From sequence record ON470580: 38,458 nucleotides of DNA; one strand, given 5' to 3'. Source of the DNA: Escherichia phage vB_EcoM-606R7. A program made the position numbers and the translations under genes. This document shows, in pieces, positions 16,689-32,864 of the stretch; the stretch's first letter is position 1, and every line of letters begins with the position of its first letter. Below the pieces are notes generated by a model, which was given only the letters and a program-made list of their open reading frames with translations, had not been told where the DNA came from and did no database searches.

Positions 16689-16763
<75 letters not shown>

Positions 16764-16766
16764 ATA

Positions 16767-16842
<76 letters not shown>

Positions 16843-16844
16843 AC

Positions 16845-16921
16845 TGGACCGCCACCGGGGACTCGAACCTCGCACACTCAACTTAAAGGGTTGACGCTCT
16901 TTCCTGATGAGCTAGTGGCGG
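16845..16921 (-). tRNA. tRNA gene with an atypical anticodon loop (CCUUUAA; best guess anticodon UUU, Lys)
   Basis: Sits in the array with 2-nt spacers. Acceptor CCGCCAC/GTGGCGG (C1-G72), TAGCTCA D-arm start, T-loop TTCGAGT, CCA encoded; C at position 33 and one T-stem mismatch. Confidence 0.5.
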
Positions 16922-16922
16922 T

Positions 16923-16998
16923 TGGTGGCCCTTGCTGGATTTGAACCAGCGACCTGGCGATTATGAGTCGCTCGCTCTCACCACTGAGCTAAAGGGCC
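16923..16998 (-). tRNA. tRNA-Ile2-like (gene anticodon CAT; ileX/ileZ type, alternatively elongator Met)
   Basis: GGCCCTTTAGCTCAGTGGT...CGACTCATAATCGCC...GGTTCAAATCCAGCAAGGGCCACCA resembles recalled E. coli ileX. Confidence 0.75.
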
Positions 16999-19819: not shown

Positions 19820-20212
19820 TTACTGCCCAGTTTTAACGAAGTTTTTAAAGGAAACAATTGCCTGATAGGGGTTTGGTTGACAGCCAAACATATTATCGCA
19901 AAAAGGCTTGATGAAAATTCTTGCGGATCCATCTTCATTTGGCATTTTACTCACTTGATAAGCGAGGAATGGGCTATTTGGTGAAGGGTTATAAGTGGAA
20001 ATTAGCGTGTCTGTCGCCGTTTGAATTTTCCATGAGGAATTATTAGCCAACCAGAATTGCGCTCGTTTCCAATAAAAGTCACATTGCTTTTCATCTTTAC
20101 ATGTTAGTGGTTTCATTGCTTCTGCTTTCAACGCAGGATCGATCTTTGCTGCACACCCTCCCAACATTACTGTTGCAATCATTACACCTGCAACTAAAAC
20201 AAGTTTCTTCAT
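19820..20212 (-). CDS. Lipoprotein moron (AT-rich, signal peptide with lipobox)
   Basis: MKKLVLVAGVMIATVMLGGCAAK signal with lipobox; RBS AGGGAG; locally AT-rich compared with its neighbours; own terminator downstream. Confidence 0.7.
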   Translation of the reverse strand: MKKLVLVAGVMIATVMLGGCAAKIDPALKAEAMKPLTCKDEKQCDFYWKRAQFWLANNSSWKIQTATDTLISTYNPSPNSPFLAYQVSKMPNEDGSARIFIKPFCDNMFGCQPNPYQAIVSFKNFVKTGQ

Positions 20213-20354
20213 CTCCCTGCCCCCATCAGTAAAAGTTCGGTTCTCTGATAATAGAGTTAATCAACGGAAAAACGCCGAAGCGGGTTAAGTGTGGGTGCAT
20301 TGAGGATGCCTGACACATCAGAGGTGGCGAGGGATTTCTCCCCCGCCTGGTCTC

Positions 20355-20510
20355 TTACTCCTCAGGTTCGTAAGCTGTGAAGACAGCGACCTCCGTCTGG
20401 CCGGTTCGGATTCGTACCTCGCAGAGGTCTTTCCTCGTTACCAGTGCCGTCACTATGACGGTTAAACAGATGACGATCAGGGCGATTAGCATCGCCTTTT
20501 GCTGCTTCAT
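20355..20510 (-). CDS. hok: Hok/Gef-family type I toxin (HokD/RelF-like)
   Basis: 51-aa sequence MKQQKAMLIALIVICLTVIVTALVTRKDLCEVRIRTGQTEVAVFTAYEPEE matches recalled HokD; long untranslated leader upstream (20511-20800). Confidence 0.85.
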   Translation of the reverse strand: MKQQKAMLIALIVICLTVIVTALVTRKDLCEVRIRTGQTEVAVFTAYEPEE

Positions 20511-20800
20511 AGCCTGCTTCTCCTTGCCTTTCGGCACGTAAGAGGCTAACCTAGATTTGCCGTTCATAGATTGAGCCTCAGATTAATGTTAAGCGTCTTG
20601 CAGGACGCGTAATGTTAACTGGGGCTTTTCTCTACCTGCCGTTGGTGTTCATGCCCGAGGCAGATAGCCTCAAGCACCCGCAGCAATTCTACTTAACTCT
20701 CCTTTTCCCGCAAACCGTTTTTACCCCCAGCGGCAAATCGAATACACCACCAGCGCCACCGCCATCGCAATTCCTACCGTTGTGAATGCTTCAGGCCAAG

Positions 20801-21196
20801 TCATCGATTCACCTCCTGCTCAATATTTTTAAGGTCATTTTCCGCATACAGTATTGCTGTCCTGGCTGCTCGTAACCGGGATTTGGCATTTTTCTCTTCA
20901 CGTTCAAGTTTTGCCACAGCTTCACGAAGAGCATCCCGCTTTGCATAGAGTGATTTAATCTCAGTCACGATGTTTTCACCGTTTCTCGCACGGTCGAGAA
21001 CAAGTTCGAACGGATCTAAAGCCAATCCACACCGTTTGCAGGTAATCGTACGATTCACTTCTGAAATTGTTGTACGGATATGCTGACAGCATTTTTGCTC
21101 GACACTTTTTTCGTTGGTTATCACAACGTTGAGGAGTCCTTCCTCCTCTGATTTTGGCTGTACCAGGGTGATAACATTGTCGATTTCATTTTTCAT
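20801..21196 (-). CDS. Hypothetical protein with Cys-rich zinc-ribbon-like segment and coiled-coil C-terminus
   Basis: 131-aa ORF with CCQH...CKRCG cysteines and a charged heptad-like tail; its stop abuts the next gene. Confidence 0.45.
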   Translation of the reverse strand: MKNEIDNVITLVQPKSEEEGLLNVVITNEKSVEQKCCQHIRTTISEVNRTITCKRCGLALDPFELVLDRARNGENIVTEIKSLYAKRDALREAVAKLEREEKNAKSRLRAARTAILYAENDLKNIEQEVNR

Positions 21197-27230: not shown

Positions 27231-27288
27231 TTTCTGGTGACGTTTGGCGGTATCAGTTTTACTCCGTGACTGCTCTGCCGCCATTTTT
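27231..27288 (+). ncRNA. dicF: DicF-like small RNA (cell-division inhibitor)
   Basis: TTTCTGGTGACGTTTGGCGGTATCAGTTTTACTCCGTGACTGCTCTGCCGCC followed by ATTTTT matches the DicF sequence as I recall it; GGCGG...CCGCC terminator stem; sits between ydfC and dicB. Confidence 0.6.
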
Positions 27289-27924: not shown

Positions 27925-30368
27925 ATGAGCACTGATAAAGAAGAATTTGCACTATATTGCGAAGCAAAAAATGACAAAGTAAGAAAACGCCTGGGAATTA
28001 AAGGTGGTTTTTACTGGACTACAGCAAAAAAATTATCTGTTGCAATCTCCCGCTGCATTACCGCAATGGATGACAACGATTATGATGAAGACGACTTTAA
28101 AAAACCCGTCCGCGTCAATTTGCCCGTTGTTGACGACCTTCCGCCAGAAGGCGTGTTTGATACTGAATTCTGCAACCGCTATGAAAAAGGCGGGAAAGAT
28201 GGCATCACAATGACATTTATCGGCCCTTCCCCCTCTGTTCAGGACAAACCAGCCAGCACTGACAATACCAACATCAACGGCGAAGACATGACTGAGATTG
28301 AGGAGAGCATGCTTCTGCCTGTCTCCGGTCAGGAACTGCCCATTCGTTGGCTTGCTCAACACGGCAGCGAAAAACCAGTAACGCACGTTTCACGCGACGA
28401 ACTCCAGGCATTACACATTGCACGGGCTGAAGAACTACCGGCTGTTACTGCCCTGGCTATTTCGCATAAAACCAGTCTGCTCGACTCGCTGGAGATTCGC
28501 GACCTCCACAAACTGGTTCGTGACACTGACAAAGTTTTCCCTAATCCTGGTAATTCAGACCTGGGACTAATAACTGCTTTTTTCGAAGCATACCTGGACG
28601 CTGACTACACTGATCGGGGTCTGCTGACAAAAGAGTGGATGAAAGGAAATCGTGTTTCACGCATCACCCGCACGGCTTCCGGTGCTAATGCTGGCGGTGG
28701 GAACAAAACCGATCGCAATCCGAATTTAGTACACACCCTCGACACACTGGATGTGGAGATTGCAGCAGCCACACTTCCGATGGATTTTAATATTTATGAA
28801 ATTCCGGGCAGCGTTTATCGTCGCGCANNNNNNNNNNAGTCCTGAAAAAAGAAAGTCCGTTCAAAGAATGGTCCGCAGCACTTCGTGCAACCCCGGGTAT
28901 TCTGGACTATTCCCGCGCCGCTATTTTTGCACTTATCCGAAGTGCACACCCTGAATTTTATCACTACCCGGGACGCCTTCAGGGGTATATCAACGCCTAT
29001 TTGACGGAAACTGATCACGAGAACCCCAGCAAGGAAACTCTCACAGCTGCCCGGCATACGCCGGAAAAAGATATCCTGGAAGAAATTAACCGCGAGGTGG
29101 TTACTGAGCGTGAAACAGAAGAAGAAAAACCACAACCATCTGACGCAATGGCAGGTGAACAGGCAACAACTGAAACAATGGAACCGGATACAACTGAACA
29201 TTGCCAGAACGCGCAGTCGCTGGATGCTCAGTCGCAGGTGAGTTCCGCTAACCAAGTAAAAGTCACCGCTGACGAAGTAAACAAAATTATGCAGGCAGCC
29301 AATATCAGCCAGCCTGACGCCGATAAGTTACTTGCTGTATCGCGTGGTGAATTTGTTGAGGGGATTAGCGACCCTAATGATCCGAAATGGGTCAAGGGGA
29401 TCCAGACTCGCGATTCTGTGAACCAGAACCAGCATGAATCGGAACGGAACTACCAAAAAGCGGAACAAAACAGCCCAAATGCGTTACAAAACGAGCCAGA
29501 AACGAAACAATCCGAACCAGTAGCGCAACAGGAACCGGAAAAAGTCTGCACCGCCTGCGGTCAGAGCGGTGGCGGCAACTGCCCTGATTGTGGCGCGGTG
29601 ATGGGCGACGCAACATACCAGGAAACATTCGATGAAGAGAATCAAGTTGAAGTTCAGGAAAATGATCCGGAGGAAATGGAAGGCGCTGAACATCCACACA
29701 AGGAGAACCCTGGCGGCAATCAGCATCACGCCAGCGATAATAAAACTGGCGAGGCGACAGATCCCTTAATTAAGGTGAATGGTCATCATAAGCTCACATC
29801 CACCAGCAGAGCGGGGATTCATCTGATGATCGACCTTGAAACCATGGGAAAAAATCCCGATGCCCCGATTATCTCAATAGGCGCAATATTTTTCGATCCA
29901 CAAACCGGAGATATGGGACCGGAATTTAGCAAGACCATCGATCTGGATACTGCTGGCGGAGTCATTGATCGTGACGTCATTAAATGGTGGCTGAAGCAAT
30001 CACGTGAAGCGCAGTCTGCCATTATGACCGATGAAATCCCGTTAGATGATGCACTACTGCAATTGCGGGAATTTATCGACGAAAACTCCGGTGAATTTTT
30101 TGTTCAGGTCTGGGGTAATGGGGCCAACTTCGACAACGTGATTTTACGCCGTTCATACGAACGACAGGGTATCCCCTGCCCGTGGCGCTACTGCAACGAT
30201 CGCGATGTACGCACAATCGTTGAGCTGGGGAAAGCCATAGACTTCGATGCCAGAACTGCTATCCCATTCGAAGGTGAGCGCCATAATGCACTTGATGACG
30301 CTCGTTACCAGGCAAAATACGTTTCAGCTATCTGGCAAAAACTGATCCCGAGTCAGGCTGATTTTTAA
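27925..30368 (+). CDS. Exodeoxyribonuclease VIII-like protein (YdfE-like N-terminal part, DEDDh-type 3'-5' exonuclease C-terminal domain); spans a 10-N gap
   Basis: Reading frame stays open from 28839 to 30368, and the 27925-28827 ORF is open up to the gap, so one roughly 810-aa product is likely. C-terminus carries [15 protein letters not shown] and HNALDDA motifs. Reading frame across the gap is not verifiable. Confidence 0.55.
28828..28837. other. Assembly gap (10 N)
   Basis: Run of n characters. Confidence 0.99.
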
Positions 30369-31707: not shown

Positions 31708-31797
31708 TGGCGGAGAGAGGGGGATTTGAACCCCCGGTGGAGTTGCCCCCACTCCGGTTTTCGAGACCGGTCCGTTCAGCCGCTCCGGCATCTCTCC
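31708..31797 (-). tRNA. serU: tRNA-Ser (anticodon CGA), serU-like; probable prophage attachment target
   Basis: Hand-folded: GGAGAGATGCCGGAGCGGCTGAACGGACCGGTCTCGAAAACCGG... with long variable arm and CCA; 3' end faces the integrase gene. Confidence 0.8.
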
Positions 31798-32788: not shown

Positions 32789-32864
32789 TCCTCTGTAGTT
32801 CAGTCGGTAGAACGGCGGACTGTTAATCCGTATGTCACTGGTTCGAGTCCAGTCAGAGGAGCCA
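32789..32864 (+). tRNA. asnT: tRNA-Asn (anticodon GUU), asnT-like; HPI attachment site
   Basis: TCCTCTGTAGTTCAGTCGGTAGAACGGCGGACTGTTAATCCGTATGTCACTGGTTCGAGTCCAGTCAGAGGAGCCA read directly. Confidence 0.9.

Follow-up and report, generated by a model that had tools for sequence, protein, structure and literature searches.

A gene for a 51-residue peptide of the Hok toxin family lies on the minus strand of the window (the whole 38,458-nt stretch of DNA analysed here), and the relB and relE genes that accompany hokD in the K-12 prophage Qin are missing. Is this a toxin gene left without its partners, or part of a complete RNA-controlled module? Judged by its sequence, the locus is an ordinary, complete hok/sok toxin–antitoxin cassette in a lambda-like E. 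coli prophage, and all the sequence elements of a hok/sok type I module are found in it, between ~20714 and 20268. We consider it highly probable that this cassette represents hokD in its full-length form, that it is allelic to hokW-sokW, and that it is a moron of a lambdoid nin region. The cassette type is already known, having been annotated since the 933W genome and characterised experimentally in 2021.

The toxin gene, its leader and its promoter

The hok gene (hokD allele, 51 codons and a stop codon at 20357-20355) occupies positions 20510-20355 of the minus strand and is preceded by the Shine-Dalgarno (SD) sequence AAGGAG at 20525-20520. The initial annotation had recognised its product as HokD/RelF, and we found the peptide to be the same as K-12 HokD at 51 of 51 positions (100%) and to match Pfam family PF01848 (HOK_GEF) with an E-value of 3e-23 and 81.6 bits, the cut-off being 22. 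Its matches to the NCBIfam Hok models fall under their curated cut-offs (48.5 vs 73). The ORF has the hallmarks of a Hok/Gef membrane peptide, namely a length of ~50 residues, a conserved Cys and the RKDLCEV core. RefSeq calls the identical protein HokD in E. coli 042, and the HokD peptide is reported to be toxic when expressed (preprint 10.1101/2025.08.07.668861). No second hok copy is present in the whole window. That a hok-family type I toxin gene sits here in a prophage without relBE was also borne out: a tblastn search of the whole 38-kb window with K-12 RelB and RelE returned chance matches only (best E-values 0.5-1.5), and the window has no relB or relE upstream of hok, as the relBE-hokD (relBEF) arrangement would have.

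Much of what follows draws on an alignment (A2) of 44 distinct full units, taken from annotated records and from the 62 loci obtained in one scan of species-representative genomes; these 44 loci come from Escherichia, Shigella, Kluyvera, Citrobacter, Photorhabdus, Pantoea, Erwinia and others. As in hok/sok modules, an overlapping reading frame with an SD of its own begins upstream of hok: mok, called as an ORF of 70 codons (20567-20355, minus strand), is in frame with hok and encloses it. It starts with the ATG at 20567, 8 nt downstream of a GAGG (20579-20576, nt 101-104 of the predicted mRNA) that is invariant across the 44 loci. All 44 loci have an ATG at the position aligned with the mok start, and in 31 of the 44 mok shares the frame of hok.

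A box of the form GTAnAAT ends 6 nt before GGGTGC or the invariant GGGTGCTTGAGGC in ~50 related loci whose upstream DNA is otherwise unrelated. In the window this conserved −10 box reads TAGAAT (20691-20686) and, with a weak −35 element, TTGCGG (20713-20708), makes up the predicted hok promoter (20713-20686, minus strand). The position of the −10 box, taken together with the family-wide 5′ end GGGTGCTTGAGG, places the start of the mRNA at ~20679. A simple scan of positions 20150-20900 for sigma-70 promoters and terminators called neither; it misses the hok promoter because the −35 element agrees with the consensus at only three of six positions. We rejected the empty scan as proof of absence, since the sok hexamers described below are those of the validated sokW and the hok −10 box is conserved. 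Both promoters are putative elements placed by homology.

With its 5′ end at ~20679, the leader reaches the mok AUG after 112 nt and the hok AUG after 169 nt and, since it contains the mok start, it would be partly translated. The untranslated leader of ~290 nt that had initially been proposed thus gives way to a shorter one that holds the mok start, and positions 20721-20804 belong to another ORF. This separate ORF, on the same strand as hok, encodes a hydrophobic peptide of 27 residues and has a strong SD of its own; it is also kept upstream of hokW and in strain 042, and its comparison with PHROG and Pfam gave no matches.

A scan of the whole window found the leader to match Rfam family RF01794 (‘sok’) with 102.1 bits (gathering score 59, E = 3e-22). 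The match spans 20679-20505 on the hok-sense strand and covers model positions 1-157 of 157. With this strand and an end at the hok AUG, the model represents the leader of hok, i.e. the target of Sok, and not Sok; we therefore rejected the minus strand of this match as the strand of Sok.

Predicted mRNA fold and the Sok antisense gene

The predicted full-length hok mRNA is ~412 nt long (20679-20268, minus strand), its 5′ end being placed by homology and its 3′ end uncertain. The sequence from 20679 to 20262 folds with a minimum free energy (MFE) of −162.3 kcal/mol (z = −5.5). In this fold, tac, the translational activator element formed by nt 1-12 (GGGUGCUUGAGG, 20679-20668), is paired with fbi, the fold-back inhibitory element (CCUCAAUGCACCC, 20305-20293), through 12 base pairs with one bulge. 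The tac/fbi duplex has an energy of −21.5 kcal/mol vs −14.2 ± 2.2 kcal/mol for shuffles, a value reached by 11 of 2000 shuffled 3′ UTRs and equalled at one other place in the 38-kb strand. The long-range pairing of 5′ and 3′ ends that characterises hok/sok is thus predicted here. A fold-back 3′ end had been anticipated in the initial annotation; fbi does exist, but it lies outside the interval then given for the locus (20355-20800), and the locus continues to ~20268.

When the window fold is projected on the 44 loci, 87% of alignment cells are paired, vs 38-45% with slid partners, and at 37 pairs both partners vary. Over these loci, 92% of the cells in the tac/fbi helix are paired. The tac motif is conserved, with compensatory changes, and tac and fbi co-vary, GGGCGC... 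occurring, for example, with ...GCGCCC and GAGAC with CUCUC; the pair U4-A is replaced by C-G in 12 loci. Covariation likewise supports a 3′ stem-loop, GGCGGGGGA-GAAA-UCCCUCGCC (20347-20326, minus strand), which is presumed to form the protective end of the processed mRNA, the role of its R1 counterpart having been described (PMC9841398). In this 3′ hairpin (helix 17) 98% of cells are paired, and four pairs have changed on both sides.

Folds of short fragments predict a metastable 5′ hairpin (nt 3-29, 20677-20651, minus strand) that sequesters tac in the nascent transcript: the first 30-45 nt of the hok mRNA fold as an 11-bp hairpin of −18.8 kcal/mol, and the R1 equivalent of this hairpin is described in PMC9841398. 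Downstream of it lies ucb, the anti-SD element AGCCCCAG (nt 54-61, 20626-20619, minus strand), within which AAAGCCCC is invariant in the 44-locus alignment. In the full-length fold ucb is paired with the mok SD region (nt 99-106), which hides the SD; in fragments of 60-80 nt and in an enforced ‘open’ fold it is paired with tac. The mok SD is then paired with dcb (AGCCUC, nt 133-138, 20547-20542, minus strand), an element nearly invariant in the alignment and placed by constrained folding of a 3′-truncated mRNA. To gauge the energetics of the switch, the open tac/ucb fold was imposed on the full-length mRNA, at a cost of 11.0 kcal/mol, and on mRNA lacking fbi, with its 3′ end cut at the GC-rich hairpin (20347-20326), where the cost falls to 0.2 to 2.4 kcal/mol. 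In the unconstrained MFE fold of the truncated mRNA the leader stays closed, with no switch to the open form, and in constrained folding the open form is only near-isoenergetic with the closed one. The 5′ hairpin, the closed ucb/mok-SD fold and the alternative tac/ucb and SD/dcb pairings were all found computationally and, as modelled here, the tac/ucb switch corresponds to that of R1 hok/sok (PMC9841398).

On the plus strand, a predicted sok promoter (20524-20552) consists of the −35 hexamer TTGCCT, a spacer of 17 nt and the −10 hexamer TAACCT. Both hexamers were missed by the simple scan and are the same as in sokW of 933W, whose −10 hexamer was mutated by Takada et al. to abolish Sok (primer YO-421; PMC8621323). 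The predicted Sok antisense RNA, mapped from the misc_RNA annotation of 933W sokW, is 71 nt long (20559-20629, plus strand). It folds, at −30 kcal/mol (z = −5.6), into a single-stranded 5′ tail of 14 nt, a long hairpin and a UUUU end, and is complementary to nt 51-121 of the hok mRNA, so that the ucb anti-SD, the mok SD and the mok AUG are all covered. The locus thus contains the sequence of a cis-encoded Sok on the opposite strand, with its promoter, tail and hairpin directed at the mok initiation region. An antisense RNA had been expected on the plus strand between 20510 and 20650, and the predicted promoter and RNA (20524-20629) fall within this interval.

The least regular element of the locus is its end. 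In K-12 and most hokD-type relatives, CCCGCTTCGGCGGG and a run of T residues follow 9 nt past fbi and form a terminator of −12 to −15 kcal/mol. The corresponding hairpin of the window is 2 G shorter than in K-12 and most relatives, leaving a 3-bp stem that is not called as a terminator. Comparison with relatives identifies this degenerate intrinsic terminator as CCCGCTTCGGCG followed by TTTTTCC (20284-20266, minus strand), and CCCGCTTCGGCG with five T residues is common to the window, strain 042 and ESBLEC_MG32. The blocks of sequence common to other genomes end at 20273-20283, so the module boundary coincides with the degenerate terminator. The 3′ end of hok may differ here, with read-through into the downstream lipoprotein-like gene. 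In hokW of 933W, unrelated sequence follows fbi and no such terminator is present, yet the locus is functional. Because hokW works without it, we read the degenerate terminator as an uncertainty about the 3′ end and not as inactivation.

Relationship to other hok loci and prophage setting

The closest characterised relative is mokW/hokW/sokW of the Stx2 phage 933W and the Sakai prophage Sp5 (AF125520), with 92.2% nucleotide identity over 538 nt; the sequence in E. coli 042 is 96.8% identical across the full query. Like the window, 933W has an in-frame mok of 70 residues (annotated as mokW), the same tac, ucb, dcb and fbi, and a conserved 27-aa ORF and a DUF551-type gene upstream; sokW has the same 71-nt hairpin with one difference in the loop. 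The two loci differ at the Hok C-terminus, which reads TAYEPEE in the window and VDYESEK in HokW, and at mok codons 2-5, which correspond to the Sok 5′ tail (MNGKS in the window, MLNTC in the hokW locus). The DNA past fbi is unrelated, and the positions are different as well: the window locus lies in the nin region, between the replication genes and DUF968-RusA-Q, whereas hokW lies at the right end of the 933W prophage, beyond the tail genes. Where the locus departs from hokW, the changes affect loops, compensate one another or fall in the variable region of the Sok tail. It belongs to the hokW-sokW subgroup, since its high nucleotide identity extends along the entire unit and takes in the extended Sok hairpin.

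The Hok peptide of K-12 hokD (relF, in the relBE-hokD operon of Qin) is identical to that of the window, and the two loci share the hok SD, coding region, 3′ hairpin and fbi. They also share their surroundings: in Qin, as in the window, DUF968/ydfU and Q lie downstream, in a lambdoid prophage with DicF and DicB. The terminator is full in K-12 and shortened in the window. In the K-12 sequence (JM109 relB-relE-hokD was aligned), however, homology to the window reaches no more than 14 nt upstream of the hok AUG; beyond that point, relB-relE take the place of the promoter, tac, ucb, the mok start and sok. Since homology extends no further than this, relBE-hokD is the derived, truncated form. The absence of relBE, which had initially been taken as an anomaly of the window, is instead the state from which K-12 departs, and K-12 hokD is better read as a truncated derivative. 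The loss of the elements replaced by relB-relE agrees with reports in which K-12 hokD does not function as a hok/sok system (PMC5630033).

All named regulatory elements of plasmid R1 hok/sok (PMC9841398) map one to one onto the window locus: the metastable 5′ hairpin, tac and fbi, ucb and the mok SD, dcb, the 3′ hairpin, and Sok over the site of mok initiation. R1 Hok, at 52 residues, is ~44% identical to HokW and so to the near-identical Hok of the window. The R1 locus is plasmid-borne and has an established role in post-segregational killing, whereas the window locus is prophage-borne. Chromosomal loci of the hokC/mokC/sokC (gef) type (loci L024-L034) share the in-frame mok, the tac motif and the architecture of the leader. 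They have ~80% protein identity to the window and a shorter Sok hairpin, lack the insert of 18-20 nt that lengthens the hairpin in the hokD/hokW group, and are chromosomal, not prophage-borne.

Of 5426 complete E. coli genomes, 4253 (~78%) carry a comparable full leader, defined as 80% or more of the 169 nt, with a median of two copies and a maximum of nine in this count; up to 9-11 copies occur per E. coli genome. Among those 4253 genomes the leader is never annotated. In RefSeq-style annotation the hok CDS (‘HokD’) is the one part that is marked; with mok and sok left out, an intact module can look like an orphan toxin.

The window is a lambdoid prophage beside tRNA-Ser and mtfA, where it is integrated, and carries DicF and DicB in its early-left operon. 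The prophage also has an exonuclease gene with an apparent frameshift. The hok gene lies in a nin-like region, with the 27-aa ORF, a phrog_1621 ORF and a DUF551-type gene upstream and the lipoprotein-like gene, DUF968, RusA and Q downstream, all on the hok strand. In five of five annotated contexts hok is co-oriented with its flanking genes; summing the open frames of 17 loci proved too coarse a test of this, and the five annotated contexts were used instead. Given this co-orientation, transcription of the PR operon would run in the sense direction through hok and head-on into sok. Among near-identical prophage copies, the only part of the leader that varies freely is mok codons 2-5, i.e. the Sok 5′ tail. 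We offer, as a tentative idea in which our confidence is low, that prophage hok/sok loci are orthogonal ‘specificity alleles’, each Sok guarding only against its own hok, or that placement co-directional with the early operon lets head-on transcription, driven by induction, silence sok and time a Hok-assisted lysis. The window allele, with its different Sok tail and weakened terminator, is a natural variant for probing Sok specificity and 3′-end formation.

Proposed mode of action and rival explanations

By homology with R1 hok/sok and hokW-sokW, we infer how the locus would be transcribed and processed, how its toxicity would be controlled and what its biological role may be. The weak promoter would yield a stable hok mRNA of roughly 400 nt, the 5′ end of which would be held by the metastable hairpin while the transcript is nascent. 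In the complete mRNA, tac (nt 1-12) would pair with fbi near the 3′ end to give the closed fold, in which ucb covers the mok SD and neither Mok nor Hok would be made. Slow trimming of the 3′ end to the GC-rich hairpin would take away fbi; tac would then pair with ucb, the mok SD would come to lie in the target hairpin with dcb, and in this open mRNA mok would be translated and hok with it through translational coupling. As long as the lysogen is healthy, the plus-strand promoter would supply 71-nt Sok, a short-lived RNA that would pair with the mok translation-initiation region, and RNase III would destroy the duplex with the hok mRNA. Once sok transcription stops, Sok would decay and the pool of stable mRNA would give Hok, which would enter the inner membrane and depolarise or kill the cell.

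For hokW-sokW, Takada et al. have shown that HokW is toxic and that Sok counteracts it, partly via RNase III and Hfq (PMC8621323). On induction with mitomycin C the sokW RNA vanishes in a RecA-dependent manner, HokW then builds up in the inner membrane, and deletion of hokW-sokW delays growth arrest and halves phage release (PMC8621323). The trigger and role in the window may be as for hokW, the loss of Sok at prophage induction leading to earlier membrane damage and better phage release. By this analogy, help with lysis and phage release, and not the prophage stabilisation or abortive infection initially suggested, is the most likely role here, and addiction and phage exclusion are possible side effects. 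We note that hokW sits elsewhere in its own phage, so its induction-linked behaviour may not transfer.

The same machinery could have been selected for another role. One such role is defence, in which the shut-off of host transcription by a lytic phage would free Hok, abort the infection and so protect the lysogen population. Defence genes are often carried in the nin and moron regions of prophages, which counts in favour of this explanation. Moreover, R1 hok/sok on a high-copy plasmid cut T4 plating by 42% and plaque size by ~85% (cited in PMC8621323), and hok genes are four-fold enriched in prophages, but they are not enriched beside known defence systems (both preprint 10.1101/2025.08.07.668861), and the single prophage copy that has been studied, hokW, aided its own phage rather than blocking others (PMC8621323). 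Selection for defence seems to us rather unlikely. We rate addiction, in which Hok made from the long-lived mRNA would kill cells that lose or excise the prophage unreplicated, at the same low level. This prophage-stabilising role, put forward initially, is the one that hok/sok classically plays on plasmid R1, and the architecture of stable mRNA and unstable antisense RNA is retained in the window; chromosomal hok loci, however, failed tests of post-segregational killing (preprint 10.1101/2025.08.07.668861), deletion of hokW-sokW had no growth phenotype unless the prophage was induced (PMC8621323), and loss of a single-copy prophage is rare.

Two further explanations deny that the module is complete or active. 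The locus might be a silent or decaying remnant, complete in appearance but inactive, for example if damage to the terminator blocked processing of the mRNA. The two missing G residues and the failure to call a terminator point this way, and the frameshifted appearance of the exonuclease gene hints at some decay in the prophage. Moreover, hokA, hokC, hokD and hokE of K-12 are reported to be inactive (PMC5630033; preprint 10.1101/2025.08.07.668861), and the chromosomal loci hokA, hokB and hokC show no post-segregational killing (summarised in preprint 10.1101/2025.08.07.668861). The K-12 loci, however, are inactive through IS insertions or truncation, neither of which is seen in the window locus, and hokW has no such terminator whatever. 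Disruption of the conserved leader elements had been put forward as a sign of an inactive remnant, but every regulatory element was found intact and matches the experimentally active hokW-sokW, the changes relative to hokW being confined to loops and the variable Sok tail or being compensatory. We accordingly judge a remnant to be decidedly improbable. Least credible of all is an orphan HokD toxin, stripped of its relBE companions and preceded by ~290 nt of untranslated leader. The identity of the peptide to HokD and the absence of relBE first suggest it; relBE, however, plays no part in the regulation of hok, and K-12 hokD is the truncated form. The leader, 169 nt long with mok inside it and preceded by an independent small ORF, is found in full in 78% of complete E. 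coli genomes. Alignment with the hok/sok and hokD loci, in which the window aligns with mokW/hokW/sokW at 92% identity and K-12 lacks the leader, refutes the orphan toxin, and we leave it almost no weight beside the complete hok/sok cassette.

A minor feature concerns the hok coding region itself. The codon for Tyr47, TAC, is followed by G (20372-20369, minus strand; confirmed in the sequence), which creates the TACG motif for A-to-I editing by TadA, and editing at the position of the Tyr47 codon is reported for hokC, hokD and hokE (PMC5630033).

Leader and upstream reading frame

The leader of hok is recognized by Rfam RF01794, a family called 'sok antitoxin', whose match at 20505-20679 lies on the minus strand, the hok-sense strand, and stops at the hok start codon. 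The strand of this match is not to be taken for that of the antisense RNA. Within the coding region, the Tyr47 codon of hok is found in a TACG context at 20369-20372 (-).

Codons 2-5 of mok, the reading frame in frame with hok (window 20553-20566), overlap the 5' tail of the Sok antisense RNA (20559-20572, +), and no part of the leader varies more across 13 hokD/hokW-type loci that are otherwise nearly identical. Their Mok N-termini read MNGKS, MLNTC, MSHKC, MHDNI, MLDTC and MLCTC. These differences may determine Sok-target specificity where several copies reside together.

Upstream, a 27-aa hydrophobic ORF (MTWPEAFTTVGIAMAVALVVYSICRWG; 20721-20804, -) is preceded by a strong Shine-Dalgarno sequence, AGGAGG. 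The stop of a 131-aa ORF farther upstream overlaps the start of the 27-aa ORF, whose end lies 7 nt short of the hok -35 element. The small ORF is kept in E. coli 042 and, in the Stx phage 933W, upstream of hokW, and its counterpart in phage vB_EcoS-689R5 is annotated as a 36-aa hypothetical protein. Searches of Pfam and PHROG matched it to no family.

The 3' end of hok

The intrinsic terminator that follows the fold-back inhibitory element (20266-20284, -) has two G fewer than that of K-12 and most relatives (CCCGCTTCGGCG versus CCCGCTTCGGCGGG), and the junction of the hok locus with a downstream lipoprotein-like module falls in the same segment. Because the terminator is shortened at this junction, hok transcripts may read through into 20212-19820.

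hok loci in other records

Near-identical E. coli-type hok loci (protein identity 94-100%) were found in the scan of species-representative genomes (L007, L013, L040, L051, L059 and L066), on contigs labelled Veillonella, Xanthomonas, Acinetobacter, Candidatus Scatousia, Haemophilus and Collinsella, and in phage record PP818812, labelled 'Actinobacillus phage'; their presence under these labels is probably assembly contamination or host mislabelling. Tandem arrays of hok/sok units occur in Photorhabdus and Pseudocitrobacter (L031, L033, L045 and L050), with two or three motifs of the hok mRNA 5' element tac per locus, spaced ~520-715 nt apart.

The surrounding prophage

The antisense sRNA DicF is encoded at 27232-27283 (+; 73 bits) and in the closest annotated genome has ydfABC/dicB-type genes as neighbours, which makes the early-left operon of the prophage Qin/Rac-like. 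The large exonuclease gene, which in strain ESBLEC_MG32 is one CDS of 813 aa, seems to be split in the window (27925-30368, +): the ORFs 27925-28845 and 29001-30368 lie in different frames. This pattern suggests that a frameshift has occurred and that the prophage has decayed to some extent.

Genes for tRNAs lie at 16689-16998 (-), 31708-31797 (-) and 32789-32864 (+). A phage-borne cluster between Q and the lysis genes comprises tRNA-Gly(tcc), Thr(tgt), Lys(ttt) and Met(cat), only three of which are present in the closest genome. tRNA-Ser(cga) adjoins the integrase gene and is the probable attachment site, and tRNA-Asn is located beyond mtfA.
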